A DNA stretch of 64,000 bases. It comes from an uncultured Planctomycetaceae bacterium (lineage in GTDB: Bacteria > Planctomycetota > SZUA-567). The position numbers and the translations under genes are program-made. The DNA lies in assembly GCA_964457365.1 (NCBI GenBank), contig CAYWFP010000006.1:13329-77328 (forward strand). The letters run 5' to 3'. Positions 28,255 to 56,246 of this stretch are shown one piece after another; the stretch's first letter is position 1; every line of letters starts with the position of its first letter. Under the pieces are notes generated by a model. The model ran no database searches. It saw nothing but the letters and a program-made list of their open reading frames with translations, and had not been told where the DNA came from.

Positions 28255-28947
28255 ATGGGCAATACCTCGCAGGGCAACAGACGAACCGACCTGTTTCTGA
28301 CCCACCGGTTGGAAGCGTTGACCGACGGCATCTTCGCCATCGCCATGACCATTCTCGTCCTCAGCATCGACGTGCCGTCGTTTCCCGACGACAAGCACCC
28401 GACGGCACAGGCGCTGATGGATCAACTTTTCGCGTTGAGACGTCCCCTGCAGGGATACGTCATCTCCTTCCTGCTGCTGGGAGCGTTCTGGATTCTGCAT
28501 CAGGAACAGGTCCGTCGCGTGGAGGTATGCACGGCCGGTTACCTGTGGCGCAACATGATCGGCCTGCTCTTCGTCTGTATCGTGCCGTTCTCGACCGAAC
28601 TGGTCAGCGAGTACGGCCATCTCCAGCCGGCTGCCGTCCTCTTCGAGATCAACATCCTGCTCATCGGCTTGACCTTCTGGCTGCAATGGCGTCACGCCGA
28701 CGCCCATCACCTTTTCGAACCCGCCTTCGAGCGGAAGGCGATTGTCGCCGCGACGCGCGCGAACCTCGCGCTGCCGGTCGTCTCGCTGCTGGCCATCGGA
28801 ATGGCTTTCTTCCTGCCGGACTGGAGTACGCTCGTCTACATGCTGACGCCGTGGGTAGCGTCCCTTCTCGGCAACCGGGGCAAGTCCGCGGCGGATTCGA
28901 TTCTCGACGATGGGGAAGAAGCGTCTCGCGACGCTCAACCCGATTGA
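28255..28947 (+). CDS. TMEM175/DUF1211-family putative potassium channel
   Basis: Signature RLEALTDGIFAIAMTILVL in TM1 and about six TM segments; 230 aa. Confidence 0.7.
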   Translation: MGNTSQGNRRTDLFLTHRLEALTDGIFAIAMTILVLSIDVPSFPDDKHPTAQALMDQLFALRRPLQGYVISFLLLGAFWILHQEQVRRVEVCTAGYLWRNMIGLLFVCIVPFSTELVSEYGHLQPAAVLFEINILLIGLTFWLQWRHADAHHLFEPAFERKAIVAATRANLALPVVSLLAIGMAFFLPDWSTLVYMLTPWVASLLGNRGKSAADSILDDGEEASRDAQPD

Positions 28948-29684: not shown

Positions 29685-30488
29685 TTACGCCAACTGCCCG
29701 CCGTCGATCACGAACTCGCTGCCGGTGACGTAGCGGCTGGCGTCGCAAGCGAGGAAGCAGACCAGTTCGGCCACCTCGTCGCACTCCGCGAAGCGTTTCA
29801 GCGGAACCTTCTTCGCCATGTAGGCCCAGGCCGCCTCCTCGTCGCCGCCGCACTTCTCCAGCAGCTTCGGCCAGTAGGGCGCACGCGTGTAGAGATCGCT
29901 CCGCACGCCGCCCGGACAGATCGCGTTGACGCGCACGCCGTTCTCCAACTCCGCGCACTCCAGCGCCAGCGCGCGCGTCAAGAGACACGCGCCGCCTTTG
30001 CTGGCGCAGTACGCGCTCATCTCGGCCTTTGCTTTTTTGCCGAAGACCGAGGCGATATTGACAATGCTGCCGCCCTTGCGCATGGCGCGGATGCCGTGGC
30101 GCGAGCCGAGGAAGACGCCGTCGAGGTTGACCGAGAGCACGTCCCGCCAGCGCTTGTAGGTCAGCGACTTCAACGGCGTCTTCGGGGCGATGCCGGCGTT
30201 ATTCACCAGGATGCGGAGCACGCCCAGCTCGCGCTTGAGCGACTTCATCAGCTCTTTCCAGTTCGCTTCGTCCGCGACGTTGAGGACGTGAGTACGGAAC
30301 GGCCGGCCAATCATCTCCAGAGCGGCGGCGGTCTCGGCGAGGCGGTTGACGTCGATATCGGTGGCCATCACATGCGCGCCGCGACGGGCGAGCATCTCGC
30401 AGCAGGCGCGGCCGATACCGCTGGCCGCGCCGGTGACCAGGGCGACACGTTCGGCCAGGGGAGACGCGAGTTCGTCTTCTGCGCTCAT
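29685..30488 (-). CDS. SDR-family oxidoreductase (FabG-like ketoreductase)
   Basis: TGAASGIG cofactor motif, NNAG and the YCASK catalytic motif. Lies 10 nt downstream of the giant PKS gene on the same strand. Confidence 0.9.
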   Translation of the reverse strand: MSAEDELASPLAERVALVTGAASGIGRACCEMLARRGAHVMATDIDVNRLAETAAALEMIGRPFRTHVLNVADEANWKELMKSLKRELGVLRILVNNAGIAPKTPLKSLTYKRWRDVLSVNLDGVFLGSRHGIRAMRKGGSIVNIASVFGKKAKAEMSAYCASKGGACLLTRALALECAELENGVRVNAICPGGVRSDLYTRAPYWPKLLEKCGGDEEAAWAYMAKKVPLKRFAECDEVAELVCFLACDASRYVTGSEFVIDGGQLA

Positions 30489-30498
30489 CGTCGACCTT

Positions 30499-37755
<7,257 letters not shown>

Positions 37756-37850: not shown

Positions 37851-38603
37851 TCAATCGACAGCCTTCGCCGTTTTCCCGTTTAGCGTGAAGATCGGCGTGA
37901 CCACGTACCCGATGTTCTGGAACAGCCGGCAGCGGGTGTCGAGTCGGATTCGCGGATACAGATCCATGAAAAGCTGCTTGAGCATTCCCTGTTCGCTCTC
38001 GGGAGCCTCCGGAACCACCGGCAATTCGCACGCGCGCACGAAGACCTCCCGGGCGAAAGCCGTCTCGGCGATCCAGATGCCGCCGTTCAAGTAACGGAAC
38101 TCGCTGCCCTCATCGGCGACGCGTTCCTCGAATTCCTTGAAGCGTTTGACATTCGGCCAGTTGAGCCGGTCGGCGCCGAAGAGCATGGCGCAGTCGAAGT
38201 CCAGCTCGAAACCGTCGACGATGCGGTGCGGATCGTCGATAACGATGGCGTCGCGCGAGTCGATATAGAGCGTGTACTTCGTGGGGATCTCCTGCAAAGC
38301 CGCGTGCAGCACGCGCGGTTTGTCGCGACTGTTGACCCACGGATCGACCCCCTGGCCGTGTACCCGCACCGGTACGCCCAGATGCGCGAGGCTCTCCTCG
38401 AGAGCGCCCATGGCTTCGTGGCCGTTGTTACAGGTAATGACGGTGGTATCGCGGAGAGGGCCGACCTCTCGTTTCGGCGAGGCGTAGAACCATTGCTTGA
38501 TCGGCTGCCAGTGGACCTTGTGCGTATGCGGTCCCTGGGCGTGGATCACCACCGGGTGCGTATCGAAGAGCGTATTGGTCAGCACGCGCGGCCTCTTCGT
38601 CAC
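37851..38603 (-). CDS. Hypothetical protein (250 aa) in PKS operon; possible GT-A-like/nucleotide-sugar transferase fold (weak)
   Basis: GTG start overlapping the ACP stop (ATGTGA). Contains YIDSRDAIVIDD (DxD-like). No confident homology. Confidence 0.5.
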   Translation of the reverse strand: MTKRPRVLTNTLFDTHPVVIHAQGPHTHKVHWQPIKQWFYASPKREVGPLRDTTVITCNNGHEAMGALEESLAHLGVPVRVHGQGVDPWVNSRDKPRVLHAALQEIPTKYTLYIDSRDAIVIDDPHRIVDGFELDFDCAMLFGADRLNWPNVKRFKEFEERVADEGSEFRYLNGGIWIAETAFAREVFVRACELPVVPEAPESEQGMLKQLFMDLYPRIRLDTRCRLFQNIGYVVTPIFTLNGKTAKAVD

Positions 38604-38911
38604 ATCTTCTGCGGACCGCTCGGCTGGGCGGAATGATCGGTCGTCTCGTGGATGAAGGAGGCCAATGTATCCAAGCTCAGATCGCCGACGTACTTGCCGT
38701 CTTTCATCAGGAGCTGCTCGTACGGCAGGCGGCAGTCGAAATGCATATCCAGCGACGCCAGAAGATGCAACACATCGACGGAGGTGAAGCCCAAATCCTC
38801 GCCCAATCGAGTCTCAGGATCGAGACGTATATCGTCGAGATCCCAGTCCGACACCATCTGGCCGACGACCTCGGTCGTGCCGGCCATAACCTCGTCCTTG
38901 CTCAAGGACAT
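38600..38911 (-). CDS. Stand-alone acyl carrier protein
   Basis: 103 aa with the phosphopantetheine-site motif DLGFTSVDVLHLLASL. Confidence 0.75.
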   Translation of the reverse strand: MSLSKDEVMAGTTEVVGQMVSDWDLDDIRLDPETRLGEDLGFTSVDVLHLLASLDMHFDCRLPYEQLLMKDGKYVGDLSLDTLASFIHETTDHSAQPSGPQKM

Positions 38912-38989: not shown

Positions 38990-41900
38990 TTAAAAGCGAA
39001 TCAGACTTCGCCCGCAGGTCCAGGCCAGAACCCGATTCGACATAACTCTAAAATCGACAACATATTCCAAGTCCGACCCGGCGGGTTTCACCCGGCAACG
39101 CGAATCGGAATCCACGGCAACGACCTCCCATGCGTCGGGCTTTCCCTGCAGGCCCAGTCCGCTCGCCTTGGCCGCGGCCTCCTTGGCGCACCAGTACTTC
39201 AACAGCGTTTCGGGCTCCCGAGCAGGAAGGCGGTCCAGTTCCGCTTGCGTAAATGACCGTTGCAGCCACGGCCCTACAGCCCGTGCGCCGGGAAGCTCGA
39301 GATCCACACCTGCCGGCCTGCCGTTTTCGCTGCACGCCGCCGCGGCCACGTCCTCCGCGTGGGTGATGGAGACCGTCGGCGGACGGGGCAGATGCGCGCA
39401 CCGGACCACCGGCATGCCGTTCTCGTCGTTGTCGATCCCCAGGTCCGCCGGCCCCAGCAGCATCCCGTGGTGCGCCCACGCCCACGCCGTCACCGCCTCC
39501 TTGGCGGCGATGCGCCCGAGGAGGTAGCTTATCCGGCGCGGGCTTCCGGCCGGGAAGGCGTAGTAGCGCTCCCGCTCGGCTTCGTCGAGGTAGACGTGCG
39601 CGAGTACGCGCTGCCAGATGCCCCAGCTCGATTCCAGGAACGTTTTGCTCAAGACATTCACCATACGGATGAGCAAGCCGGGCGCCTGCGTCTCGACCGG
39701 AACGCTTATGCGGGCCTCGAGTTGCGGGAAATTGATCCGTTCGATAAACCCCGGCGGACAGTCGAAGAGCCGTTTACGTCCCCCTTCGACCAGCATGATC
39801 GTTTGTTCGTCCGGGGTGATGAACTCGTAGCGCGTGTGGACGATGCCGTTCTCGATCCGCAGCGCGCCGCGGCAGAGTACCTGCGTCTCCGGCGCAACCC
39901 GGGCGAAGATAGTGATGCGCTCCATGGCGAAGGGGAAGACGCCGAAGCTGTGCCGCTCGCTCCGCTCGACCAGCCAGTAGGCGACCAACTGCCCCGCGCA
40001 GTCCAGGAGCAGCGGCTCAAGCGCCAGCGTCGGTGCCGGATGGTCCGGGAAATACCGGCGCGGATCGCTCTCGCGGATTACCGCCTCGTAGCCGTGGGCG
40101 TCCATCCAGTTCACCTTCCGGATACCCTGCAGCGACGGGCCGTGAAACAGGAAATAGCGGTAGAACTCGTCGACCGTGACGCGGGGAGGCCGGGCCTCGG
40201 CATCGGGCCGGATCTCCGAAGAAGGCGCGGCGGGGTATTCGTCGGCGCAGACCACCACGGCCTCCAACACCAGTGCGCGCGCTTCCTCGTCGGCGAGTTC
40301 ATACACGCGCACGCGCGCGGCGCGCTCCGCCGGCTCGGATCCGATCCGCTCGGCCTGCAGTTCGATGCCGACGGCACCACGATCAAGTGCGAGCCAGCGC
40401 ATGCCGCGCACCTCGTCCAGCCGGATCGCCATGCCGCCAAGAAGCGCTACCGCCGCCTCGGCGACCGCTTCGATGCTGAACGCCATCGGCTGCACCGGCA
40501 GGCCCGACTCTGGCGCCGTCTGCGCGACCTTCCCCGCGCGGCCGAAACAGTGATCCAGCAGGTACCGGTCCTCTCCGGCGGCCAGCCGCCGGCGCGCGAC
40601 CAGGCGCGTCGGGCTCCGCTCGACCACCTCGCCCAGGAGCGGAGCAGAAGGTTTTGTCCCCGTCGGGCTCGGCGCCGTCTCCGGCGGCCGAACGCGTGGT
40701 GACGCGGCGGGCTGTTGCAAGCGTGCGACAAGCAGGGCGTGCAGGCGCGCCTGGCTTTCGAGAAACCGGTTCATCAACTCGAAATGGGCCTTGACGATCT
40801 CCGCGCGGTCGACCGGCACCCGCTGCGGCAACGCGGGTGGCGGGGGCGCGGATGGGATCGCGGTCGTCGGAGAAGGCGCGTGTTCGTCCGCGGATGCCGG
40901 CCTCACCGGCGGCAACAACTCGTCCAGGCTTGCAGGCTCCGGCGAGCCTTCGGCCAAGAGCGCTTCGGCGTTCCACGGCACGCCGGCGACGTACAACTGC
41001 CCGAGTCCGTCCAGAAAGCTCTGCAGGCTCGGCTCCGCGCCCATGGCCAGCGCCGTGTGCGGCCGTCCGCGCAGGATGTCGCCGACGAACGGAGTGAGCA
41101 GGTTTCCCGGTCCGACTTCGAGAAAGGTGCGCACGCCGTCCTCGTGGAGCCGTTCGACGGTCTCGCGGAAGCGCACCGTGTGGACGAGCTGGTTGCGGAT
41201 CGTCTCGAGCATGGCTTCGGATTCTTCCGGCATGGGTCCCACGGCATAACAACTGAAGAGCGGAATCGTCCCGCCCCGCAGACGCAACCGCGCGAAGAAC
41301 CCGTCGTAACGCTGGAGCCGCTTCGCGAAGAGCGGCGTATGGAACGGCAGATCGAAAGGGATCGGCAGGCAGATCGCGCCCGCCTCCTGCAGACGGTCGA
41401 TGGCCCGCTCCATCGCCTCGTCATCGCCGAAGAGGACGAGTTGGTGCGGCGCGTTGTCCATGGTCAGAAAGACGCGCTCGCCATCGACCACGTCGGCGAG
41501 GCAGTCGCGGTCGCGTACACTCACGGCCACACTGCGCCCGCGCGGGACCGTCTCGCTCCGCTCCACCTCGCGGGCGAAATCCGCCAGTTCCCGCAAGAGC
41601 TGCAGGTATTCGCCGCGTTCGATACGGCTGCTTCCGCTGGCGACGAGGGCGATGTTCTCCCCGTTACTGTGACCGAGCATCGCGTCGACGGGAACGCCAA
41701 GCCGCCCGAGCAGATCGCAGAGCCCCAGCGTGCCGACGACCACCGCCGCGCCGCCGGCGTTGATGTCCAGAAGAAAACGCTTCACCGCTTCGCCTTGTTC
41801 TCCCGTCAATACGGCCGGCGGATGGAGCAGCGTACTGACCGCGTTCTCCTGCGGATGCGCGAAGGTCGCGTCGAGCTGGTCGAACGCGGACCTTATCGAC

Positions 41901-43339
41901 GGGAACGCCAGCGCCAGGTCGTGCATCATGCCGGTCTGCTGGGCGCCCTGTCCGGGCATCAGCCAGGCGACCGTTCCCCGCTCGGTTTCGACCGCGACGC
42001 CGTACCATATGCCGTACCGCGTCCGCAGTCTTCCCTTCTCCGGCAGCAGCGGTCGAATCCGCCGAAGCTTCTGCAGCAATTCCAGGCTGTCGCTCGCGCG
42101 GACCGCCAGCCGCGCCGGGCCGTCCGCCTCTGGCAGCAACGCCTGCGCCAACGACTCCGCCGAGACGTCCGGTCGGGTTTCGAGCCGGCGGATCAAATCG
42201 TCGATCCGTGCGAGCATGGCTTGCGGCGACGGCGCGCCGAGGAGAAACAACGTTTCCGTCCGGATCGGCGTGCGCGGAGCGCGCCCGCTCGCGGCTTCGC
42301 ACAACCGCCAATGACAGGCCATTCCGCCGGGTTCGACGGAGGTGATGCCCACGCGTCGGAGATCGGCCTCTGCGCGGAACCACGCGCGGGCGCTCGTGTC
42401 GACCCGCATGTTCGCGTCTGTCGTCGTCGCGCCGGAGAGCGGCGGCAGCAGTTTCTCCCGGAGCGCCAGGCAGCCGCAGAACAGCGCGCCCAATCCCGCC
42501 GCCGCGCCGGCGTGGTCGAAGACGTTCTTCTCGCATCCCAACGTCACCACCGGCAGCGCGAGTCCCGGCGGCAGGCGCGATTCGAGGGACTCCAGTTCCC
42601 GTCGGTCCTGAGACGGGCCGCCGCCGCTCAGGAGTTGCCATGACGGCGGCAGCGGTTCATTCGGATAGGCCGTCTCCAGCAACGCGTCCAACGTGTCTCG
42701 CGAAGCATGCGGCCAGGCGAGCTCCGGCTCGTGTACGCGAATGATCGCTTCGAGTACGGCGTAGGCCTTCGTATTCTCCGTCTCGCGGCTCAGCACCAGG
42801 CAGACCCCGCCGGCCATGGGAAGGATGCCCTCTGCGCCATCGGCGAGTGCGCGCATGGGCGTATTGAGCAGCAAGCCGCTTCCGCGCAGGTGCAGCAGCA
42901 GCGCTTCGGGGATCATGCGCTGCACCGCCAGGAGGGCCACGGTCGGGGACGCCTCCAGCATCCTTCCCGCCACGTTCAGCAATGCGCCCGAATCCGAGAG
43001 CGGCGCGTGAAAGCGGAGGTACGGGTAGTCCTTCGCCAGCGAAGCGGCCCAATCCGGCGGGGCGACGACATCGACAGCCGGCGCGACACCGCCGGGCCGC
43101 GCCAGAATTCGGGCGTACTCCGTCTCTGTCGCGTACAGCAGCGGGATCTTCGTCTCGGGCTCGACTCCCGCGTCGCGCAACGCTCCACGTACGAGCGCGG
43201 CCGGGTCGGGAATCGGCGCGCGCGTCGCTTCGGGAGGACGCCCCGGACTGCGCAGCAGCGCCCAGATATCCTCGAGCGTATTGTACTGCGCCAGGTGGGC
43301 GCTCACGCCGATGATCGCGAGTGGTCCGCTCGGATTCAT
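38990..43339 (-). CDS. Polyketide synthase subunit: degenerate KS-like (KS0), AT, PKS-type DH, C-terminal Sfp-type phosphopantetheinyl transferase (1449 aa)
   Basis: KS0: LAIIGVSAHL... with no active-site Cys. AT: GHSNGE. DH: YFLFHGPSLQGI and LLDCAGQL (DxxxQ). PPTase: GVDLE and WCAKEAAAKASGLG, plus the first-half LGRIAAKEAV. Confidence 0.85.
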   Translation of the reverse strand: MNPSGPLAIIGVSAHLAQYNTLEDIWALLRSPGRPPEATRAPIPDPAALVRGALRDAGVEPETKIPLLYATETEYARILARPGGVAPAVDVVAPPDWAASLAKDYPYLRFHAPLSDSGALLNVAGRMLEASPTVALLAVQRMIPEALLLHLRGSGLLLNTPMRALADGAEGILPMAGGVCLVLSRETENTKAYAVLEAIIRVHEPELAWPHASRDTLDALLETAYPNEPLPPSWQLLSGGGPSQDRRELESLESRLPPGLALPVVTLGCEKNVFDHAGAAAGLGALFCGCLALREKLLPPLSGATTTDANMRVDTSARAWFRAEADLRRVGITSVEPGGMACHWRLCEAASGRAPRTPIRTETLFLLGAPSPQAMLARIDDLIRRLETRPDVSAESLAQALLPEADGPARLAVRASDSLELLQKLRRIRPLLPEKGRLRTRYGIWYGVAVETERGTVAWLMPGQGAQQTGMMHDLALAFPSIRSAFDQLDATFAHPQENAVSTLLHPPAVLTGEQGEAVKRFLLDINAGGAAVVVGTLGLCDLLGRLGVPVDAMLGHSNGENIALVASGSSRIERGEYLQLLRELADFAREVERSETVPRGRSVAVSVRDRDCLADVVDGERVFLTMDNAPHQLVLFGDDEAMERAIDRLQEAGAICLPIPFDLPFHTPLFAKRLQRYDGFFARLRLRGGTIPLFSCYAVGPMPEESEAMLETIRNQLVHTVRFRETVERLHEDGVRTFLEVGPGNLLTPFVGDILRGRPHTALAMGAEPSLQSFLDGLGQLYVAGVPWNAEALLAEGSPEPASLDELLPPVRPASADEHAPSPTTAIPSAPPPPALPQRVPVDRAEIVKAHFELMNRFLESQARLHALLVARLQQPAASPRVRPPETAPSPTGTKPSAPLLGEVVERSPTRLVARRRLAAGEDRYLLDHCFGRAGKVAQTAPESGLPVQPMAFSIEAVAEAAVALLGGMAIRLDEVRGMRWLALDRGAVGIELQAERIGSEPAERAARVRVYELADEEARALVLEAVVVCADEYPAAPSSEIRPDAEARPPRVTVDEFYRYFLFHGPSLQGIRKVNWMDAHGYEAVIRESDPRRYFPDHPAPTLALEPLLLDCAGQLVAYWLVERSERHSFGVFPFAMERITIFARVAPETQVLCRGALRIENGIVHTRYEFITPDEQTIMLVEGGRKRLFDCPPGFIERINFPQLEARISVPVETQAPGLLIRMVNVLSKTFLESSWGIWQRVLAHVYLDEAERERYYAFPAGSPRRISYLLGRIAAKEAVTAWAWAHHGMLLGPADLGIDNDENGMPVVRCAHLPRPPTVSITHAEDVAAAACSENGRPAGVDLELPGARAVGPWLQRSFTQAELDRLPAREPETLLKYWCAKEAAAKASGLGLQGKPDAWEVVAVDSDSRCRVKPAGSDLEYVVDFRVMSNRVLAWTCGRSLIRF

Positions 43340-43348: not shown

Positions 43349-44020
43349 CTACGCCTTCTCGATCCGCAGTTCGAATCCGAGTGAAGCCAGACCTTCTTCG
43401 GGCGAATAGATTTTGGCGTGGTCGGCGATGCCGGCCTCCTCGACAAACGCCTGCACTTCACCGGGCGTGAACTTGCCGTCGAGGACGCTGTTCTCGACGC
43501 CGGCTTTCGCGCGCATTCTGTTGAATGATGCCAGCGCCTCGGGATGCGGATCGCGCCGTACGTCGTGAATGACGGCGACCCCGCCCGGGGCGAGGACGCG
43601 GTCGATCTCCCGGAACGCCCGCACCGGATCGGGCCAGTGGTGAATCGTGCTGCGGCTGACGACCAGGTGCGCCGAACCGTCGCGGCACGGCAGTGCGTGC
43701 ACGTCGCCGGCCAGGAGGTGCACGCGGTCGGCGCAGTCGTCCTCGACCACCGCGCGTTTCGCCTCGCCGAGCATGTCCTGGTAATAATCCAGGCCGATCA
43801 ATCGCATTCGCGACAGATCCGGCATCGCCGCCAGCTTGAGCAGGACCTGCGCCGTGCCGGCGCCCACGTCCAGGAGCGCTGCGTCCGCGGGCTGCCGCCG
43901 GTATTCCCGCCCGATGCGCTCGATGAAGATCCTGTCGAACGGCTCGATATAATCCTGGGTGAATTTGTCGTACAGCTCCGCCGAGTAGCGCACGCGGATG
44001 CCTTGCTCTTCCCCGTTCAT
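43349..44020 (-). CDS. Class I SAM-dependent methyltransferase
   Basis: Start MNGEEQG overlaps the upstream stop (ATGA). LLDVGAGTAQV glycine-rich SAM motif, and acidic loop VAVIHDVRRD. Confidence 0.8.
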   Translation of the reverse strand: MNGEEQGIRVRYSAELYDKFTQDYIEPFDRIFIERIGREYRRQPADAALLDVGAGTAQVLLKLAAMPDLSRMRLIGLDYYQDMLGEAKRAVVEDDCADRVHLLAGDVHALPCRDGSAHLVVSRSTIHHWPDPVRAFREIDRVLAPGGVAVIHDVRRDPHPEALASFNRMRAKAGVENSVLDGKFTPGEVQAFVEEAGIADHAKIYSPEEGLASLGFELRIEKA

Positions 44021-45435
44021 GACGTTCCTTTCCCGCTTCGGTGCAGCGCGGAGAGAGAACGCGCGGCCGCCTCGACGCTCTCGGTCGCCGGAACTCCCCG
44101 CCCGCGCAGATAGGCCAGGCCCGCGCGAACCGTCGACTCCGCGCCCCAGACGAGGTGAACCTGCGGCTGCGGATAGGTCGCGTGCAGCGCGACGAGTCCG
44201 GCGAGTTGTTTTTCCAGGTAGCCGTCCCAATACCAGTTGCACGTGACCAGGGCGTCGACGCCGGGATTCTCCAGCACCGCGCGCATGCACGCGTCGACGC
44301 GCGCCGGATCGGCCATCACCGCGGGGGTGATGTCGAGCGGGTTGGCGTGGCTGGCGAAGGGCGGGATCAGCGCGCGGATGTTCTCGCGCGCCGCGTCTTC
44401 AAGCGGCGGAAGTGTCAGACCGTGCACGACGAGCCGGTCGACCAGGTTCACTCCGACGCCGCCGAGAGTGGTGACGACGCCGACACCACTGCCGCGCAGC
44501 GGTCGCCCCGTGGCCATGACGGCGAGGGCCTCGACCAACTCGGATACGGTCTCGACGAGGATGACGCCGCGTTCAAGCAGCAGTTCCCGCAGCGCCGCCG
44601 CCTCGGCCGCATCGGCGCCGGTATGACGTCTGCACGCCTTCACGCCCGTGTCGCTGCGCCCGCCTTTGAGGAGGACGATCGGCTTGCCGACTTTCCACAG
44701 CGCGCTCAGTCCCGCGTCAAGCGCATTCGGGTCGGATGTGTTCTCCAGGTATGCACCCACGCGTGGCGTCTGCGGATCCTCCGCGTAATACGCCAGAAGT
44801 TCGCCGAAAGTCAGGTCGGCCTCGTTGCCGCTGCTGACCATGCGGCTATAGCCGACGCCGCGCGCGCCCAGTCCCTCGAAGACGCGGGCGCAGATGCCGC
44901 CGCTCTGGCCGACGAAGCTGAAGCTCTGCGGATAACTGAGGTGCGATTCGTCCAGCGGCTGCAGCAGGAGGAAGTTCGCCATCAATTTCGACGGCGTCGA
45001 GAGCACGCCCATGCAGTTGGGACCACAGAGAAGCAGACCGAACTCGCGTGCCGTTTGGCGCAGATTCTCTTCCAGCGCTTCGCCCGCCTCGCCCGCCTCG
45101 CCGTACCCGCTGGTCAGGACGATTACGGCTTTGACACCGGCCTGTGCGCAGTCCGCGAGGGTATTCGGCACCAGCGGCGGCGGCAGGGCGATGATCGCGA
45201 GTTCCGGCGATTCGGGAAGATCCGCGAGCGACTTGTAGCAGCGGCGGTTCAGGATCTCGTCGTACTTGGGATTGACCGGGTAGATCCCGCCCGGAAAGCC
45301 CGCGCGTTTCAACGCCAGCACCGGCTGGCCGCTGGGCTTGAAGGGATCCGCGGAGGCGCCGACGACCGCCACGGCATTGGGCGCGAAGAGCGCCCGGAGA
45401 GCCGTCCGGCGATGAGCGGAGAGGACGGCGCTCAT
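44017..45435 (-). CDS. Acyl-CoA synthetase (NDP-forming) alpha-subunit-like protein (CoA-binding plus succinyl-CoA-synthetase-like domains), no beta/ATP-grasp partner
   Basis: AVVGASADPFKPSG CoA-binding Rossmann start and the ACD-alpha architecture (about 473 aa). ATGA overlaps on both sides. Confidence 0.7.
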   Translation of the reverse strand: MSAVLSAHRRTALRALFAPNAVAVVGASADPFKPSGQPVLALKRAGFPGGIYPVNPKYDEILNRRCYKSLADLPESPELAIIALPPPLVPNTLADCAQAGVKAVIVLTSGYGEAGEAGEALEENLRQTAREFGLLLCGPNCMGVLSTPSKLMANFLLLQPLDESHLSYPQSFSFVGQSGGICARVFEGLGARGVGYSRMVSSGNEADLTFGELLAYYAEDPQTPRVGAYLENTSDPNALDAGLSALWKVGKPIVLLKGGRSDTGVKACRRHTGADAAEAAALRELLLERGVILVETVSELVEALAVMATGRPLRGSGVGVVTTLGGVGVNLVDRLVVHGLTLPPLEDAARENIRALIPPFASHANPLDITPAVMADPARVDACMRAVLENPGVDALVTCNWYWDGYLEKQLAGLVALHATYPQPQVHLVWGAESTVRAGLAYLRGRGVPATESVEAAARSLSALHRSGKGTS

Positions 45436-46046
45436 GAGGTGGCGAGCAGTCGTCGGCCGGCTTCGAAGGCGCCCCGGTTCAACTCGCGCAGCTTGGGCTT
45501 GAGGACCAGGGGCAATGCTTCCAGATAACGCCCGGCCGGCAGATCCAGCGCGCCGCACGCGGCCAACGCGCCGAGCATGACCACGTTGGTCGCCTTGGCG
45601 TTGCCGGTCTCCTGCGCGGCCTTGACCGCCGGCAGCAGCTTCGTCGCGGGAGCGAGTGTCGAGAGCGCTTCGGCGATAGCGTCCACCGCAGGATAGGTCG
45701 CCTTGCCGCTGAGGACGGCGATGGGGTAGATCGGCCGGTCGCTGGCGAGAACCGTGGTCTCCGGATTGCCGTAGTCGGCCAGCACGCGCAACGTCTCCAG
45801 GGGTTCGAGCCCGACGATGACGTTGGCCTTGCCGCGCGGGATGAGCGGCCCCGTGCGCAGCGTCGGATGCAGGCGGACGTGGCTCATCACCGCGCCGCCG
45901 CGTTGACTGGCGCCGAAGGTCTCGCCGACGCTGACCTGGTAACCCGCCGCCACGGCCGCGGTCGCCAGCAGGCGCGAGGCGAGGACGTTGCCCTGGCCGC
46001 CGACGCCGGTGATGATGACGTTGAGGGGATCCGTAAGCGCGATCAT
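45432..46046 (-). CDS. iorB: Indolepyruvate:ferredoxin oxidoreductase beta subunit
   Basis: IITGVGGQGNVLASRLL motif, 204 aa; its ATG overlaps the iorA stop (ATGA). Confidence 0.8.
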   Translation of the reverse strand: MIALTDPLNVIITGVGGQGNVLASRLLATAAVAAGYQVSVGETFGASQRGGAVMSHVRLHPTLRTGPLIPRGKANVIVGLEPLETLRVLADYGNPETTVLASDRPIYPIAVLSGKATYPAVDAIAEALSTLAPATKLLPAVKAAQETGNAKATNVVMLGALAACGALDLPAGRYLEALPLVLKPKLRELNRGAFEAGRRLLATS

Positions 46047-47965
46047 GCGCCGCCCTCCGGCACGAGCTCGGCTGCGGCGATGGCGCCGGCCGGGCAGAGT
46101 TGCGCGCAGACGCCGCAGCCGTTGCATAGCGTCTCGTCGATCCGCGCCTTGTTCGTCGCGTCGTCCCAGACGGTACCGGGGCAGGCGAATTTTCGCGAGC
46201 AGAGCCCGCAGCCGGCGCAGCGTTCGGGATCGACGCGCAGAACGGTCTTGGTTTTCTCGCGCGCGGCTTGCAACGCGCACGGTTGCCGCAGGATCAGGAC
46301 GCGCGGTCCGGTCTGCTGCAACAGGTCGTAGACGGCCGTCTCGGTCGCCTGCAGGTCGAACGGATCGCGCACGGTGACCGGCAGTCCGATGCCTTCAAGG
46401 AGCGACTCCATCCCCACCCGCGCGGCGTCGACACCGCTGGCGCTGGTCGGCAATCCCGGGTGCGGCTGGTGTCCGGTCATGGCGGTGGTGTGGTTATCCA
46501 GAACGACCAGCAGGACGTCGGCGTTGAGGTGTTTGGCCTCGACGAAGGCCGGGAGGCCCGCGTGGTAGAACGTGCTGTCGCCCAGCACCGCCACCACCGG
46601 ACGCTTGAAATCGAACCGCCCGAGCCGTCCGAGTCCCGTGGCCATGCCGACGCCCGCGCCCATGCAATGTACCGAGCGCAGCACGCCGTAGCCTGTCTTA
46701 CCGAGCGCGAGGGTATAACAGCCGATGTCGCCCAAAACGATAGCGCCGCGCCCGTCTCGATCGACCGCACGGTACATGGCCCAGAAGCCGGCCCGGTGAC
46801 CGCAGCCGGCGCAGAAGGTATGTTCGCGCTTGGGCATCTCCTGATCGAGCAGCTTCTCCGCCGCGGCGGTATCGGTGAATCGTCTCGTCGCGCGCTCGCC
46901 GCCGAAGACGCTCTGGATCGCGTTTATCACCAGATCCGGATCCATCTCGCCCACGCCCGGGCCGTGCGGGCCCGCGACCGTGCCGTCCATTTTGCCGCGG
47001 AAGCGGGTCATGCCGATTTCGCTCATATGCAGCGCCGTCCATGCCATGACGCTCTCTTCGACGAATCCGGCGGTCTCTTCGACAAAGACCACCTCCGCCG
47101 CCGGCGCGAGCGCCTTCGCGAGCAATTCGTCCGGCAGGGGGAAGCTTGTCCCGAGCCGCAGCAGGCCGACCTCGCCGCTGAGGCCCAGCAGGCGGATCGC
47201 CTCGGCCGCGTGCAGGGCACAGACGCCGGTGGCGATGACCAGCTTCTTCACCCCTTCGGGGCCGGCGTAAACGTTGAACGGCGACTGCTCGTGCAGTCCC
47301 TTGACCGCCGCGAGCCGTTTCTTTACAGCGGCGTGAAACATGCCCAGCGTCAGAAAGCGCTCCTCCGGGCCGATATCGGCCTTCCGCTCGCGCGGCGGCA
47401 ACTCGCCCAGGGTGACGTTCCCGGAGCCATGGCAGATGCGCGTGGTGAGGCGCACCGCCACCGGCAGGCCGATTTTTTCGGAAACGTCGAAAGCCGCGCG
47501 CGTCATCTCCTTGGCGTCGTGCACGGTGGCGGCTTCCCAGACGGGGATTTCGGCGGCCTTGAGAAACGCGCGGCAGTCCTCCTCCTTGACGCCCGAATGC
47601 GCGCCGCAGTCGTCGCCGACGACGATGACCATGCCGGCCTTGACGCCGGTGTAGGCCAGGGCGGTCAGAAAGTCGAGCGTGACGTTGAGGCCGTCGGGCT
47701 TCATCGAGACGAGCGCGCGCAAACCCGCCAGACTCGCGCCGGCAGCCGCCTCCATCGCCACGATCTCGTTGATCGACCATTCCGCGACGATGCCCGCCTC
47801 TTCCGCAACCGCGGCGAGCGAGCCCATGATTTCCACCGTCGGCGAGCCCGGATACGACGCGGCCATCTGCGCGGCGCCTTCGAGCACGCCGCGCGCCGCC
47901 GCCTCGTTGCCGTTGAGGAGAAGCGCGCCCCCGGGGTCGTCGCGCAGGATCAAGTGGTCGCTCAT
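46043..47965 (-). CDS. iorA: Indolepyruvate:ferredoxin oxidoreductase alpha subunit (TPP-binding, two 4Fe-4S ferredoxin motifs)
   Basis: Start MSDHLILRDD at 47965 (ATGA overlap with upstream gene). TPP motif GDIGCYTLA...GDSTFYHAG. Ferredoxin motifs CAGCGLCSRKFACP and CNGCGVCAQLCP. Confidence 0.85.
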   Translation of the reverse strand: MSDHLILRDDPGGALLLNGNEAAARGVLEGAAQMAASYPGSPTVEIMGSLAAVAEEAGIVAEWSINEIVAMEAAAGASLAGLRALVSMKPDGLNVTLDFLTALAYTGVKAGMVIVVGDDCGAHSGVKEEDCRAFLKAAEIPVWEAATVHDAKEMTRAAFDVSEKIGLPVAVRLTTRICHGSGNVTLGELPPRERKADIGPEERFLTLGMFHAAVKKRLAAVKGLHEQSPFNVYAGPEGVKKLVIATGVCALHAAEAIRLLGLSGEVGLLRLGTSFPLPDELLAKALAPAAEVVFVEETAGFVEESVMAWTALHMSEIGMTRFRGKMDGTVAGPHGPGVGEMDPDLVINAIQSVFGGERATRRFTDTAAAEKLLDQEMPKREHTFCAGCGHRAGFWAMYRAVDRDGRGAIVLGDIGCYTLALGKTGYGVLRSVHCMGAGVGMATGLGRLGRFDFKRPVVAVLGDSTFYHAGLPAFVEAKHLNADVLLVVLDNHTTAMTGHQPHPGLPTSASGVDAARVGMESLLEGIGLPVTVRDPFDLQATETAVYDLLQQTGPRVLILRQPCALQAAREKTKTVLRVDPERCAGCGLCSRKFACPGTVWDDATNKARIDETLCNGCGVCAQLCPAGAIAAAELVPEGGA

Positions 47966-49152
47966 GCGTTCACCTCGTCGATGTTTTTCAGGAGCGCGCG
48001 CAGGTTCTCTTCCGTGTCCTGCCATCCGCGGCTCTCGCTCATCCTCTTGACCTTGGCCATCAGGGCCTCGGCCTGTTCGTTCGTGAGTTCCGCACCCAGC
48101 TCCTTCGCGCGCGCGAAAAACGCGGCCCGACCGCTGTGCTTGCCCAGGACCAGGCGCACGCTTCCCGCGCCGACGAGCTCGGGCGCGTACGGCAGGTACG
48201 TGGTCGGATTTTTCAGCAAGCCGTCCTGGTGGATGCCGGCCTCGGTGGCGAAGATGTTGGCGCCGGCGACGGGCTTGGTCGGCGAGAGCGGCACGCCGGC
48301 CTCTTCGCTGACCAGGCGCACGAGCGGGACGAGCTCGTTCAGTTTTATCGGCACGCTCCGGCCGAGGCGTTCGCGCTGCAGATGCGCCGCCAGCGCCACT
48401 TCTTCCAAGGCGGCGTTGCCGGCGCGCTCGCCGAGACCGCCGACGGTGCATTGCACGATCGCCGCGCCCGCGCGCACGCCCGCGAGGCTGTTGGCCACCG
48501 CCATCCCCAGGTCGTTATGGAAATGCACGGCCAGGTACGCCTTGGCCAGTTCCGGAAGTTCCGTCCACAAGGTCTTGAGATTCTCGATCACCTGGTCCGG
48601 CGCGAGAACGCCGACGGTGTCGGTATAGCCGATGGTGGTCGCGCCGGCCTGCAAGGCCGCGCGACAGACCTCGACCAGATACGGCATCTCGGTCCGGCTG
48701 GCATCCTCCGCGCCGAAGGCGACCACGCCGAAGCGCTCCCGGGCGTAGCCGACGCTGGCGCGGACGCGGTCGATCAGTTCGCTCTCGCTCAAGCGTAGCT
48801 TCTGCTCGCGGTGCACGGTGCTCGTGGCGATGAAGAGGCTGACGCCGCAGCGGCGACGGTCGATGCCCTCGAAGGCGGTGCAGGCCGCGTCGATGTCGCG
48901 CTCCACGGCGCGGCAGAGCGCGGTGACCATCGTCTTCGGCAGCGCCTGTGCGACCGCCCGCACGGATTCCACCTCGCCCGGACCGCTGGCGGGAAAGCCC
49001 GCCTCGATGGAGAAGATGCCGGCCTCGGCCAGTGCCACGGCGATGCGCACCTTCTGCTCGGCGGTCAACGCCACGCCCGGCATCTGCTCGCCGTCGCGGA
49101 GCGTCGTGTCGCTGAAGACGATAGGCGGTGCATCGGTCTGCTGCTGTGTCAT
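47962..49152 (-). CDS. LeuA/NifV/CimA-family 2-oxoacid:acetyl-CoA condensing enzyme (DRE-TIM metallolyase, short form without regulatory domain)
   Basis: FSDTTLRDGEQ N-terminal motif and the HFHNDLG metal-binding motif; 396 aa. First gene of the minus-strand operon. Confidence 0.8.
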   Translation of the reverse strand: MTQQQTDAPPIVFSDTTLRDGEQMPGVALTAEQKVRIAVALAEAGIFSIEAGFPASGPGEVESVRAVAQALPKTMVTALCRAVERDIDAACTAFEGIDRRRCGVSLFIATSTVHREQKLRLSESELIDRVRASVGYARERFGVVAFGAEDASRTEMPYLVEVCRAALQAGATTIGYTDTVGVLAPDQVIENLKTLWTELPELAKAYLAVHFHNDLGMAVANSLAGVRAGAAIVQCTVGGLGERAGNAALEEVALAAHLQRERLGRSVPIKLNELVPLVRLVSEEAGVPLSPTKPVAGANIFATEAGIHQDGLLKNPTTYLPYAPELVGAGSVRLVLGKHSGRAAFFARAKELGAELTNEQAEALMAKVKRMSESRGWQDTEENLRALLKNIDEVNA

Positions 49153-49267: not shown

Positions 49268-50995
49268 ATGCTCTTTCTAGACTTCCCACGGATTGCGGGC
49301 TCGATTGGCGGGCAGGTCACTTACTGGGTAATCCCGGAGATTTTTTTCATGCCTCCTCTGGCCCGCTCGGCTTATCTGGAATTGCTGCGCGAGGAGATCG
49401 GCGACCGGCTCTGGCCGTTGATGCTGCTCTCGGCCTTCTCGGGAATCGCCAGCGGCGTGATCGTGACATTGATTACCTCGATCACCGAGACCGATATCCA
49501 CGGTTGGGCCATGCTCCGCTTCCTGCTGCTCTTCGTCATGGTCGCGCTGGCGTCGCTGGAGTTGTCGCGCCAGGCGTTGCTGCGGGTGAACCGGGAGATC
49601 GAGCGCCTCGTCCACCGCATCCGCACGCGCGTGGCCGACCGTATCCGCCACGCGGAACTCCGAGACCTGGAGCGGCTGGACCTGGCGCGCATCTACGTCA
49701 CCACCGCCGAGAGCACCGAGAACCTGACCAAGGCGTCAATGCCGGTCTTCAAGAGCATCGGCGCGCTGGTGCTCATCGCCTACTGCCTGGTGCAGATCGG
49801 CTTGACAAGCACGGTGGCGCTGGCGCTGGTCCTGGGCAGCTTTCTCGGCGCGAGCCTCCTGTACCTGTATATCGAGAAATACGCCTACGAATACATCCGC
49901 GAAGCGTACGTGGCGGAGTACCGGTTCTTCAAACTCATGCGTGAACTCGCTCGCGGCTTCAAGGAACTCCGGCTCAACCGCGCCCGCGACGCGGACATTC
50001 ATGCGGACCTCGAATCGCAGGCCGACCGGGTCGAGGCGCGGAAAATGCGCGCGCACCGTCTCGTCGCCTGGCTCTACAGCTACACCGATCTCTTCTTCTT
50101 CCTCACACTGGGGCTGCTGATCTTTCTGTTGCCGTTGCTGCACGCCTGGACCTCGCGGCAGTTGGCCGACCTGATCGCCATCCTGCTTTTTCTCGGCGGC
50201 GGCGTGGCGCAGGTGGTGCTCAGCGTCCACCAGATCGCCCAGGCCAACGTGGCGGTGCAGCAACTGCGGGAGATGGAGACCGGGCTGCGTCAATGCGTCG
50301 TGCCGGACACCCCTCAGGGAGCGCGCCCGCTACGGGAGCTGACGTTGAAGAAGGCGGTCTTCTCCCATCGCGACGAAGAAGGCGGAGAACTATACACCGT
50401 CGGTCCGGTCTCCTTGACCATCCGCCCGGGAGAAGTGTATTTTCTCGTCGGCGGTAACGGCAGCGGCAAATCCACGTTGCTGAAGATCATCGCCGGCCTG
50501 TACGCGCCGGAGGACGGCGAGATTCTCCTCAACGGCGAGGCGGTCGTCCGCGAAAACCGGCAGGACTATCGTGAACTCGTCAGCGCCGTCTTTACCGACT
50601 TCCATCTCTTCGACCGTCTGCTGGGATGGGAGGAAACGTCGCCGGAACGGGTGAACGCGCTGCTGGAGGAGTTGGGGCTGGCGAGCAAGGTCTCGTTCGA
50701 GAACGGCGGCTTCAGCACGCTGCAGCTCAGTACCGGACAGCGCAAGCGGCTGGCGCTGGCGGTGGCGCTCCTGGAGGACCGGCCGCTCCTGCTGCTCGAC
50801 GAGGTCGCCGCGGACCAGGATCCGTACTGGCGCGAGGAGTTCTATACGCGGATCGTGCCCAAACTGAAAGCACGGGGCAAGGCCGTGGTCGTGATCGGGC
50901 ATCACGATCGGTATTTCGAGACCGGCGACATGTTGTGGCGCATGGATTACGGGGAACTGGTCGAACAGCGCCCCGCGCGCTCCACGGAGGCATGA
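49268..50995 (+). CDS. ABC half-transporter, cyclic-peptide/siderophore exporter (SyrD/YojI) family, TMD-NBD fusion
   Basis: N-terminal 6-TM domain. NBD with Walker A GGNGSGKST, the signature variant LSTGQRKRLA, and Walker B LLLLDE. An alternative start lies at 49349. Confidence 0.85.
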   Translation: MLFLDFPRIAGSIGGQVTYWVIPEIFFMPPLARSAYLELLREEIGDRLWPLMLLSAFSGIASGVIVTLITSITETDIHGWAMLRFLLLFVMVALASLELSRQALLRVNREIERLVHRIRTRVADRIRHAELRDLERLDLARIYVTTAESTENLTKASMPVFKSIGALVLIAYCLVQIGLTSTVALALVLGSFLGASLLYLYIEKYAYEYIREAYVAEYRFFKLMRELARGFKELRLNRARDADIHADLESQADRVEARKMRAHRLVAWLYSYTDLFFFLTLGLLIFLLPLLHAWTSRQLADLIAILLFLGGGVAQVVLSVHQIAQANVAVQQLREMETGLRQCVVPDTPQGARPLRELTLKKAVFSHRDEEGGELYTVGPVSLTIRPGEVYFLVGGNGSGKSTLLKIIAGLYAPEDGEILLNGEAVVRENRQDYRELVSAVFTDFHLFDRLLGWEETSPERVNALLEELGLASKVSFENGGFSTLQLSTGQRKRLALAVALLEDRPLLLLDEVAADQDPYWREEFYTRIVPKLKARGKAVVVIGHHDRYFETGDMLWRMDYGELVEQRPARSTEA

Positions 50996-54629: not shown

Positions 54630-56018
54630 ATGAGCGAAAACGAGAAGACCTCCGATGCGCCAGACGGGGCGAAAAAGCCCCCGGAGAAGAAGAAGCCGTC
54701 CATAAGCATGAGACGGGTGACGCATTACTACTTTCTGATCGCGCTCTTTCTGGTCCTGCTTGTCTTGACGTATCTCGCCCCGCGCATCTTCATCACCGTC
54801 CCGCCCGGGCATCTGGGCGTCCACTTCCAGCGGTTCCGCGGCGGCACCCAGACCGCGCCGGACGAGTTGTTGCAGGAAGGGATCCATTACATCATCCCGG
54901 TGAACATGGTCTACCTGTACGATTGCCGCGTGCAGGAGGAATTCGCCGAGGTAAACGTGCTCTGCAAGGACGGGCTCAACGTCCGGGTGCGCGTCAGTTT
55001 CTGGTTTCGGCCGATGCGCCAAGACGTGGGGCGTCTGCACAAGCACGTCGGCCCGAAATATATCGAGAAGCTCGTACGTCCCGCGATTTACGCCACCGTA
55101 CGCCGCATTCTGAGCCAGTACTCGCCCGTGCAGTTGTACTCGGTGCCCGAGAGCCAGGAGATGACGATCGAGATTCAAGCCGCCGGCCAGTCCGAACTCG
55201 GACCGCGGCATGTCGAGCTGGTCAGCGTGCTGATCCACAGCGTCCACCTGCCGCCGATTCTCAACACCGCTATCGAGCGCAAGCTGCGCCAGGAACAGGA
55301 GATCCTGGAATACGCCTTCCGCGTGGAGAAGGAGAAGGAGGAGAAGGAGCGCAAACTCATCGAGGCCCAGGGCATCGCGCAGTTCCACGAAACCGTCCAG
55401 CGCGGCCTGACCAAGGACGTACTCCGTCTGCGCGGCATTCTGGCTACGCTCAATCTCTCCCGCAGCGAGAATGCCAAGATCGTCATCTTCGGCAAACCCG
55501 ACGGCTTCGGACTGCCGCTGATCATGGGGGACCTGGATGGCGGCGGAGAACACGGCAAGCCCGCGGACGTCCCGGCGACACGCCTAGACGCGCTTGATCC
55601 CTCCCTGGATCTCAGTCTGCGCACCGACCCCGATCCGGCCGCCGGTACGCACGGCGTCGACATGAGCCTTCGCCCGGCGCCGCTGGATCCGAAGCTCGAG
55701 TTCGGCCATGAGAAGGAGATGAAGGCGAATAAGCGGGAAGCCCCGGGTGGCGGTTTCGAAAAACAACCGAGCCTCTACGAAGAGGAATCGCCCAACGCGC
55801 CGTCGCTCGCGCCCAAATCGCCGACCGACGATAGAAAGCCGACCGCGAATCAGTCGACCTCGGAGAGCGCGCGACCCCCGGCCGAGACGCCCGCACGTCG
55901 CTACCCCGCCGCGGGGATCAGCCCGCAGGAGCACTACCGTCGCAAAGCCCGGTCCGAGAAGGCGGATACGGATATCGCCCCGCCGCCGAAGACCGCCGGA
56001 CATAAGGAGGCCCAATGA
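54630..56018 (+). CDS. SPFH/band-7 (prohibitin/HflKC-like) membrane protein with long disordered C-terminal tail
   Basis: N-terminal TM, then the SPFH core (HYIIPVNMVYLYDCRVQEEFAEVNVLCKDGLNVRV...) and a coiled-coil. The C-terminal about 150 aa are Pro/Asp/Lys-rich. Confidence 0.75.
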   Translation: MSENEKTSDAPDGAKKPPEKKKPSISMRRVTHYYFLIALFLVLLVLTYLAPRIFITVPPGHLGVHFQRFRGGTQTAPDELLQEGIHYIIPVNMVYLYDCRVQEEFAEVNVLCKDGLNVRVRVSFWFRPMRQDVGRLHKHVGPKYIEKLVRPAIYATVRRILSQYSPVQLYSVPESQEMTIEIQAAGQSELGPRHVELVSVLIHSVHLPPILNTAIERKLRQEQEILEYAFRVEKEKEEKERKLIEAQGIAQFHETVQRGLTKDVLRLRGILATLNLSRSENAKIVIFGKPDGFGLPLIMGDLDGGGEHGKPADVPATRLDALDPSLDLSLRTDPDPAAGTHGVDMSLRPAPLDPKLEFGHEKEMKANKREAPGGGFEKQPSLYEEESPNAPSLAPKSPTDDRKPTANQSTSESARPPAETPARRYPAAGISPQEHYRRKARSEKADTDIAPPPKTAGHKEAQ

Positions 56019-56224
56019 TTCCTGTCGTCGCTATCGTCGGGTACCTGGTGCTCTGCCTCTTGACCGGATTGATCGCCGAGCACAAGATGATCCTGAACTG
56101 GCGCCCGCAGATCGGACAATACCGGTTCCGAATCGGTTTCTGGCTGGCGACGTTCTGCGCGGTGTTCTTCACGCCGATCGTCGTCTTCGTGGTGCTTCTG
56201 GTGATTCCGACGCGAACGCGATGA
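56015..56224 (+). CDS. Small two-TM membrane protein coupled to the SPFH gene
   Basis: AAGGAGG RBS; the ATG overlaps the SPFH stop (ATGA). 69 aa, hydrophobic. Confidence 0.55.
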   Translation: MIPVVAIVGYLVLCLLTGLIAEHKMILNWRPQIGQYRFRIGFWLATFCAVFFTPIVVFVVLLVIPTRTR

Positions 56225-56246
56225 ATTTCACGTGGACATTCGGTTG

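Follow-up and report, generated by a model that had tools for sequence, protein, structure and literature searches.

The window analysed here, a GC-rich stretch (~0.67 guanine plus cytosine, GC) of 64,000 nucleotides (64 kb) on contig CAYWFP010000006.1 from an uncultured Planctomycetaceae bacterium, carries on its reverse strand two large genes, gene A (38990..43339, −) and gene B (30499..37755, −), which probably encode the two halves of a single lipid synthase. Gene A, delimited by its open reading frame (ORF), its translation and its Pfam and NCBIfam matches, encodes 1449 aa in four parts: a degenerate ketosynthase (KS), which we call KS0 (residues 1–350; 42290..43339, −), recognised by BLASTP against the KS of gene B, by family alignment and by AlphaFold2 (AF2) and Foldseek; an acyltransferase (AT; residues 456–770; 41030..41974, −), recognised by Pfam, by alignments to FabD structures from the PDB and by a residue census; a double-hotdog dehydratase (DH) of the polyketide synthase (PKS) type (residues 895–1200; 39740..40657, −); and a two-lobed phosphopantetheinyl transferase (PPTase) of the Sfp/EntD type (residues 1210–1449; 38993..39712, −). 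Pfam places Acyl_transf_1 at residues 459–755 (E 2e-17), PS-DH at 1048–1167 (E 8e-11) and ACPS at 1344–1414 (E 6e-11), with weaker matches to PKS_DH_N at 900–998 and 4PPT_N at 1266–1336. All four domains had been named in the original prediction, correctly as judged from Pfam and the alignments, and the profile searches for ACPS and PS-DH recover both. The same protein, identical throughout, occurs on the NCBI contig and in an independent Logan assembly (SRR7048224), so gene A is not an assembly artefact.

Within the family, the DH and the PPTase are a conserved module. Residue equivalences, here and below, were derived from MAFFT and HMMER alignments. The DH has the catalytic residues His930 (in LLDHCFG) and Asp1113 (in LLDCAGQ), and the PPTase carries the motifs GRIAAKEA (K1280), GMP, VSITH, GVDLE (D1346, E1348) and WCAKEAAAK (K1386, E1387, K1391); the two motifs quoted in the original prediction are thus present, GVDLE at 1344–1348 and WCAKEAAAKASGLG at 1383–1396. 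When the C-terminal 555 residues are aligned with 29 relatives, both DH columns are invariant, as are K1280, the proline of G-x-P, S1324, H1327, G1344, D1346, K1386, E1387 and K1391 in the PPTase. Across 151 family representatives, these PPTase positions are conserved in ~90% (those equivalent to D1346, E1387 and K1391 in ~135), while E1348 is less strictly kept, with Glu in 104 and Gln in 27. The VSITH sequence at 1323–1327 is the hShxH (P1b′) motif, its Ser present in 137 and its His in 135 of the 151.

An AF2 model of the DH-PPTase (DH-PPT) didomain has a predicted local distance difference test score (pLDDT) of 91 and a predicted template-modelling score (pTM) of 0.90, which suggests that the two domains may form one rigid unit; over 211 residues the model can be superposed on PcpS. 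In a profile search with the PPTase region, each half separately matches AcpS in the PDB (E 5e-18), and there are also matches to Sfp (5e-10), the PPTase of fungal fatty acid synthase (FAS), EntD and PptT; the domain is thus a complete two-lobed PPTase of the Sfp/EntD type, with the ~230-residue, single-chain, two-lobed fold of type II enzymes. It differs from the Sfp/EntD/PptT group in being covalently fused behind a DH. The acidic residues whose absence would speak against a PPTase are in place, D1346, E1348 and E1387 being present together with K1391. When the ORFs in all six frames of the 64-kb window were searched with the family profile, which is able to detect AcpS, Sfp, EntD and PptT, no further PPTase was found, in agreement with the earlier statement that the cluster has no separate PPTase gene.

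Could the PPTase nevertheless be an inactive structural appendage of the DH, with the acyl carrier proteins (ACPs) activated by an enzyme encoded elsewhere? The window is 64 kb of a genome, and relatives of the kind described in the next paragraph show that the N-terminal lobe can persist without catalysis. Gene A, however, has both lobes and all catalytic and coenzyme A (CoA)-binding motif residues, those residues are conserved in about nine tenths of the 151 representatives, the model superposes on PcpS, the domain is the sole PPTase found in the window, and the literature regards the homologous ArsD as the enzyme with the PPTase role in the Ars system (PMC4824345). We thus give an inactive domain a small probability.

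Two observations concern the family PPTase more generally. Each lobe is nearer in sequence to AcpS than to Sfp (E 5e-18 vs. 5e-10), and the first lobe bears the motif “AAKEA/AAKDA”, which is AcpS-like and whose Lys is invariant; this suggests that the family PPTase may have arisen from tandem AcpS-like units, distinct from the classical Sfp enzymes. Furthermore, a set of truncated relatives (P0002, P0150, P0155, P0166, P0169, P0178 and P0199 among them) has the first lobe only and lacks the half with GxDxE and WxxKE. P0002 (loci L002–L006) was seen on 9 contigs with the small ACP gene after it, so that its truncation looks genuine; the first lobe may be kept there as a structural partner of the DH.

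Gene B encodes a protein of 2418 aa which, by Pfam, NCBIfam and catalytic residues, is composed of a putative degenerate enoylreductase (ER0), an enoylreductase (ER), a KS, a malonyl AT, two ACPs and a ketoreductase (KR). The ER is of the NMO type (residues 311–645), the Cys-His-His triad of the KS is intact, the AT is a canonical malonyl AT, and the tandem ACPs present Ser1746 and Ser1853. The earlier placing of the condensing KS in the other protein, as part of a two-protein split with KS-AT-ACP2-KR on gene B, is thus borne out. The best NCBIfam family of gene B is PfaA (TIGR02813), with 924 bits against a family cut-off of 1010 bits. Gene A contributes the only DH of the A/B system, and the two genes combined are predicted to provide one active KS, one malonyl AT, two ACPs, a KR, a DH and an ER, that is, a full reducing cycle.

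The N-terminal segment of gene B (residues 1–300; 36856–37755, −) resembles a second, degenerate ER, with a weak internal match (E 0.002) and “GNECGGW” where the active ER reads “GRECGGH”. The same ER-like extra segment occurs in loci L011, L012, L027, L029, L049 and L070, and ER0 and ER could form a pseudo-dimer in gene B.

The AT of gene A is of a different kind from that of gene B. It keeps the Ser558-His667 dyad, with the motif GHSNG, and has Gly at the position of FabD Gln63 and Leu at that of Arg117, as seen in the alignments to PDB FabD structures and in the residue census. This is a property of the family: among 87 ATs from second subunits neither the catalytic Ser nor the His varies, the Gln63 position is A, S, V or G and never Gln, and the Arg117 position is L, V, I or F and never Arg, while in the partner ATs Gln is found in 64 of 67 and Arg likewise in 64 of 67. 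Because the malonyl-binding Gln and Arg are lost, the AT of gene A is predicted to handle a non-carboxylated acyl group, and we read it as a non-malonyl, PfaB-like AT.

PfaB is a pseudo-KS/AT protein which moves long acyl chains rather than malonyl and whose AT has no Gln-Arg pair (PMC12895367). Like gene A, it has an N-terminal pseudo-KS without a catalytic triad fused to an AT which retains the Ser-His dyad and lacks the malonate-binding residues (PMC12895367), and by the criteria of that study the earlier analogy with a PfaB-like KS0-AT is apt, with the equivalents of Gln63 and Arg117 missing family-wide. The two proteins differ in that PfaB has a Tyr ahead of the catalytic Ser, where gene A has a His, and in that PfaB lacks the DH and PPTase which gene A carries; gene A, unlike PfaB, also stands outside any system with FabA-type DH domains or a pair of KS and chain-length factor (CLF). 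The PDB sequence matches of gene A did not include the solved structure of PfaB.

A particular feature of gene A is its N-terminal domain. Residues 144–379 align with the KS of gene B at 27% identity (E 1e-10, BLASTP), and KS sequences in the PDB match the start of KS0 (from PLAIIGVS) and its end, while no Pfam KS model matches residues 1–450. The second catalytic His (H276) and the Lys (K271) are preserved. The first His motif, EAHGTGT, is replaced by LLSGGGP, the nucleophile elbow reads PLSDSGALL with no Cys there or nearby, and KS0 is ~75 residues shorter than the partner KS ahead of the nucleophile position. An AF2 model of residues 1–800, built from a 36-sequence alignment, has a mean pLDDT of 83 and a pTM of 0.87, lower in the KS0 part, and matches KS-AT didomains over ~870 alignment columns (best E 2e-42, Foldseek). 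An intact triad would have spoken against an inactive KS, and with the Cys absent and the first His replaced the call of a KS0 stands: by its residues, the KS of gene A is degenerate and predicted to be catalytically dead.

A mis-called start or a frameshifted KS was considered as an explanation for KS0 and rejected; the ORF is continuous and identical in two assemblies, and it clusters with other KS-dead proteins. In a quick and rough neighbour-joining tree of the DH-PPT regions, drawn without support values, the KS-dead proteins fall in one clade in which a few members with an intact KS are nested. The clade includes gene A, the proteins of three acidobacterial loci (L012, L070 and L027), and P0072, from a metagenome-assembled genome (MAG) of Thermodesulfobacteriota, which at 42% identity is the best relative of gene A.

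A possible role for KS0 would be that of a CLF which pairs with the active KS of gene B, as the CLF does in PfaC or in type II PKS. In its favour, KS0 still has a thiolase-like fold, and the second His and the Lys are in place; the relatives with an intact second KS imply that the ancestral system used two KS domains; and the KS-dead forms persist as a clade instead of being deleted, which suggests a retained role. Against this, the KS0 sequences are mutually very divergent and poorly alignable, as is more typical of relaxed constraint, ~75 residues are gone from the N-terminal half, the Ars-type system described below runs on DH-PPT alone without a second KS or AT, and the corresponding KS′ of PfaB is reported to be monomeric and non-catalytic. 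A CLF function would be compatible with the reading of gene A as the second subunit of a lipid synthase, but we consider it improbable.

Although a word-indexed protein search had returned only gene A itself and one distant relative, the idea of an orphan architecture was overturned when 1.84 billion cluster representatives were searched exhaustively with HMMER for the DH-PPT half: 3036 matched at E ≤ 1e-3, of which 507 had E values under 1e-30. With few exceptions the top 150 matches cover both DH and PPTase, and among the full-length proteins in this set the commonest architecture is KS-AT-DH-PPT of ~1600 aa. Others are KS-AT-ACP-DH-PPT, AT-(ACP)-DH-PPT behind a separate KS, and DH-PPT alone, and a subset of 1350–1470 aa has, like gene A, an N-terminal domain without the KS triad. 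Scanning GTDB, with one genome per species, gave no match with the single protein and at least 550 relatives with a degenerate pattern built on the alignment. These include Synechococcus, Cyanobium, Nevskiales, Acidobacteriota, Rhodobacteraceae, Rubrivivax and Bosea, as well as anammox planctomycetes, Thermoleophilia, Chloroflexota, Nitrospirota and others.

Synteny was counted in 80 GTDB loci. A KR-containing gene of the form ER-KS-AT-ACPn-KR lies directly upstream of the DH-PPT gene in 67 of the 80, and a homologue of the small ACP described below lies within 5 kb downstream in 54. A KS match is found in 70, with the Cys-His-His triad in the second subunits sampled. In these loci (L007–L086) the tandem ACPs of the large subunit vary in number from 1 to 6, with most in Nevskiales, and in many an additional DH-like segment follows the KR at the end of this subunit. 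The DH-PPT didomain is thus a conserved module of a very widespread and mostly uncharacterised bacterial family, related to ArsA/ArsD of Azotobacter.

This relationship became visible through a tblastn search against plasmids, which gave a match on pBIND02 of Beijerinckia indica ATCC 9039, a strain reported to carry a “Type P” cluster, as does the Azotobacter ars operon (Shulse & Allen, PMC3098273). The pBIND02 locus encodes a 2674-aa type I PKS (ER-KS-AT-ACP-KR), two type III PKSs, a 629-aa “4′-phosphopantetheinyl transferase superfamily protein” consisting of PS-DH and ACPS, a glycosyltransferase (GT), and ABC and RND export genes. Gene B aligns with the ArsA-like protein end to end (34.6% identity over 2706 columns, E 0), with Pfam architectures that agree, and residues 885–1418 of gene A align with residues 44–587 of the ArsD-like protein (27.6% identity, E 5e-40). 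For Azotobacter, ArsA is described as the fatty acid synthase which makes C23–C25 acids, and ArsD as its PPTase (PMC4824345). Like genes A and B, the Ars system of Azotobacter vinelandii, seen here through Beijerinckia, comprises two proteins with the PPTase built into the synthase, and in both clusters GT and ABC export genes adjoin. The differences are that the ArsD-like protein is DH-PPT only, where in gene A a KS0-AT didomain precedes this part, and that in the window gene A precedes gene B, with the small ACP and a GT between them and with LeuA-like, indolepyruvate:ferredoxin oxidoreductase (IOR) and CoA-ligase genes in addition.

The general layout is also that of the type M-like synthases of Renibacterium salmoninarum, Frankia and Streptomyces, in which an ER is fused to a PfaA-like protein and the other subunit has a PPTase at its end (PMC13291983, PMC3098273), a layout found likewise in hybrid clusters of Aquimarina and Flavobacterium (PMC13291983). 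The arrangement of “pfaDA” with a “pfaBC” carrying a PPTase has been called unusual and likened to the Renibacterium cluster, type M of Shulse & Allen (PMC13291983), and a locus on a Streptomyces plasmid (L089) combines ER-KS-AT-ACP-KR and KS-AT-DH-PPT with an ACP, a hydrolase, a GT and a methyltransferase. The second subunits of this type have an intact KS, where that of gene A is dead, and known products in the class are limited to the ars example. A literature search on integrated PPTases with PKSE (enediyne polyketide synthase) or PUFA (polyunsaturated fatty acid) terms found nothing. Within a widespread class of secondary lipid synthases, gene A is in essence a KS-dead variant of the ArsD-like or “pfaBC-PPTase” subunit; this kind of system is already known in the literature, and what differs in the window is the dead KS, the reversed gene order and the extra genes.

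The Pfa-like names raise the question of whether the system is a variant of a canonical PUFA synthase, with gene A as a fusion of PfaB, PfaC and PfaE. The literature speaks of “pfaBC homologues with a PPTase domain” (PMC13291983), gene A has a PfaB-like KS′-AT (PMC12895367), and gene B has tandem ACPs and PfaA as its best NCBIfam family, though its 924 bits lie under the 1010-bit cut-off. The FabA-type DH/isomerase (PF07977) and the KS-CLF pair are, however, absent from A and B by Pfam, and the single DH is of the PKS type (PS-DH). The PPTases of types M–T, which are non-PUFA types, carry the hShxH (P1b′) motif (Shulse & Allen, PMC3098273), as does gene A, and the homologous Ars system is reported to make C23–C25 fatty acids and not PUFAs (PMC4824345). 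We consider a true PUFA synthase unlikely, with a slim chance of being correct.

A further reading had been put forward in the original prediction, which took a PPTase encoded in cis at the C-terminus of a PKS as the hallmark of an enediyne PKSE and the split between the two proteins as a rearranged PKSE/PUFA hybrid. The PKSEs (SgcE, CalE8, DynE8) are iterative type I enzymes related to PUFA synthases, in which a DH is followed by a self-activating, C-terminal Sfp-type PPTase; each is a single polypeptide of KS-AT-ACP-KR-DH-PPT with an active KS and no ER. In a hybrid of this kind A and B would function together as a PKSE does, and their product would be a conjugated polyene. The order of DH and C-terminal Sfp-type PPTase is indeed shared with gene A, the comparison being one of generally known layout, and gene B is PfaA-like by NCBIfam. 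Gene A, however, has no ACP or KR, which are on gene B, its KS is dead, and it works with a partner bearing an ER, a domain absent from PKSE which would reduce a polyene. There are no enediyne cassette genes and no hotdog thioesterase among the annotated neighbours from 29.6 to 51 kb, as judged from general Pfam and NCBIfam models and no dedicated cassette HMMs (hidden Markov models), and no DynE8 or CalE8 chain is found among 43 PDB sequence matches to residues 1–800. Among characterised clusters the ars type I FAS is the nearest homologue, and DH-PPT is present in at least 550 species, whose phyla are not known for enediynes. The breadth of the family (at least 550 GTDB species and 3036 representative clusters) removes the cis-encoded PPTase as a hallmark of PKSE, and what looked like a rearranged hybrid is the conserved module of a large family which includes the ArsA/ArsD-type cluster of Beijerinckia. 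A PKSE-like polyene synthase is very unlikely, and we give it next to no weight.

We thus believe that genes A and B probably encode an iterative type I fatty-acid/polyketide synthase of the two-protein, ArsA/ArsD-like kind, with gene A as its second subunit; this would be a “secondary lipid synthase” of types M–P. Several points weigh against this. Identity to the ArsD-like protein is ~28% only, and the comparison was made via the Beijerinckia cluster and not with Azotobacter ArsD itself, which was not among the profile-search matches in the word-indexed protein database (metagenome fragments only). The functions of gene A and of the KS0-type members are predicted, and confidence in the model of KS0 is moderate, with pLDDT ranging from 42 to 90 in blocks. 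The AT could act either in priming or in offloading. No thioesterase or reductase release domain was found, and the release step is guesswork. The search for other PPTases covered the 64-kb window, and an AcpS or Sfp encoded elsewhere in the genome is possible. Finally, a phmmer search with the Beijerinckia ArsB-like protein found no type III PKS among the window ORFs. In the ars cluster type III PKSs (ArsB/ArsC) take up the acyl chain; the window has none, so the synthase would feed no resorcinol or pyrone formation and its product is not an alkylresorcinol.

Further genes surround A and B. Between these two lie a small, discrete ACP-like protein of 103 aa (38600..38911, −), recognised by a weak Pfam PP-binding match and a conserved Ser in DLGF-T-S-VD, whose family has the motifs “DL.F.S.D”, which holds the conserved Ser, and “G.YV.D”, and a GT-like protein of 244 aa from the GT_PLOD family (37851..38585, −; PF25342, E 3e-11). 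Directly downstream of gene B is a FabG-like short-chain dehydrogenase (SDR) of 267 aa (29685..30488, −; adh_short_C2, E 3e-57; NCBIfam SDR/FabG). Upstream of gene A there are five genes, the first four of which each overlap their successor by 4 bp: two are the alpha (46043–47965, −; Pfam; TIGR03336, 541 bits) and beta (45432–46046, −; Pfam; TIGR03334) subunits of IOR, preceded by a LeuA-like protein with the 2-isopropylmalate synthase catalytic domain and without the regulatory C-terminus (47962–49152, −; Pfam and leuA models), and followed by an ADP-forming acetate-CoA ligase, alpha subunit only (44017–45435, −; Pfam; TIGR02717), and by an S-adenosylmethionine-dependent methyltransferase of 223 aa (43349..44020, −; Methyltransf_11 and related Pfam models, NCBIfam, gene call), whose stop codon is 9 bp ahead of the start of gene A. 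The LeuA-like, IOR and CoA-ligase set, whose translation is coupled to that of the synthase operon, is unusual in a lipid cluster and may serve in supplying a starter unit. A divergent ABC exporter, permease and ATPase (49268..50995, +; ABC_tran; TIGR01194, 329 bits), is a possible exporter of the product.

Much of this arrangement recurs in the acidobacterial loci of the KS-dead clade. The order seen in the window, reversed with respect to the family, with the DH-PPT gene followed by the small ACP, GT_PLOD and then the large subunit with its N-terminal ER-like extra, is found in L012 (Terracidiphilus), L070 (Acidobacteriaceae) and L027 (Blastocatellia), with other genes interspersed in some of them and the GT_PLOD gene at the equivalent position. 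The Terracidiphilus cluster is also adjoined by a LeuA-like gene, a similar methyltransferase and an ABC exporter, and ABC exporters flank the Beijerinckia cluster as well, while the IOR and CoA-ligase genes were seen in the window only, among the loci compared.

Other features of the window lie outside the cluster. Housekeeping genes for PNPase, MnmG and Der are present, and the best named relatives of MnmG, at 64–65% identity, come from Planctomycetes MAGs, in keeping with a planctomycete source. Just past the cluster there is a gene for a potassium channel of the TMEM175 family (28255–28947, +), and on the contig of the closest relative, from the Thermodesulfobacteriota MAG, another TMEM175 gene lies between the gene A homologue and the small ACP (L087, 4265–4888); the association may be a coincidence or may be conserved. 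Three unusual domain fusions were noted: DUF116 with a polyprenyl synthetase (20347–22167, −), pentapeptide repeats with an ion-channel domain (17483–18541, +), and an MFS transporter with HEAT repeats (14290–16521, +). Across the last 8 kb of the window (56001–64000) the GC content falls from ~0.67 to 0.55–0.58, and this may be foreign or otherwise different DNA.

How the synthase might work can be outlined from its domains. The PPTase would load phosphopantetheine from CoA onto Ser1746 and Ser1853 of gene B and onto the small ACP downstream. With malonyl units as substrate, gene B and the DH of gene A would then go through complete reducing cycles (KS, KR, DH, ER) and, by analogy with the Azotobacter Ars synthase, yield a long, largely saturated acyl chain, with KS0 as a non-catalytic scaffold comparable to the KS′ of PfaB. 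The AT of gene A would move a non-carboxylated acyl group, priming the system with a starter acyl-CoA or, once the chain is complete, passing it on to the small ACP or to some other acceptor. The GT, the methyltransferase, the SDR and the ABC exporter would tailor and export the lipid, and the LeuA-like, IOR and CoA-ligase genes may supply an unusual starter acyl-CoA.

Taken further, the operon might encode an undescribed exported glycolipid, for which IOR would produce an acyl-CoA from a 2-oxoacid, either aryl or homologated, the AT without the Arg would load it as the starter, and the single active KS of gene B would carry out every extension; the KS0 clade would then be a starter-primed branch of ArsAD-like synthases with the small ACP as the hand-over point. 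We hold this extension to be tentative and rather doubtful.

For gene A itself the gain is modest, as it is a variant member of its family. For the interpretation of such clusters there is a correction: a PPTase built into a PKS is not a sign of an enediyne synthase, tempting as that misreading is. The DH-PPTase didomain is instead the signature of a very widespread and almost unstudied class of two-subunit lipid synthases, which spans cyanobacteria, acidobacteria, anammox and other planctomycetes, Nevskiales, Rhodobacteraceae, actinobacteria and others. Rules emerge at the level of the family: the AT of the second subunit has lost its malonyl-binding residues, a dedicated small ACP comes after the gene, and, as far as the rough tree indicates, the second KS has degenerated in one clade. 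Should their products be envelope glycolipids, the clusters could account for long-chain lipids that are still unassigned in several phyla of environmental importance.

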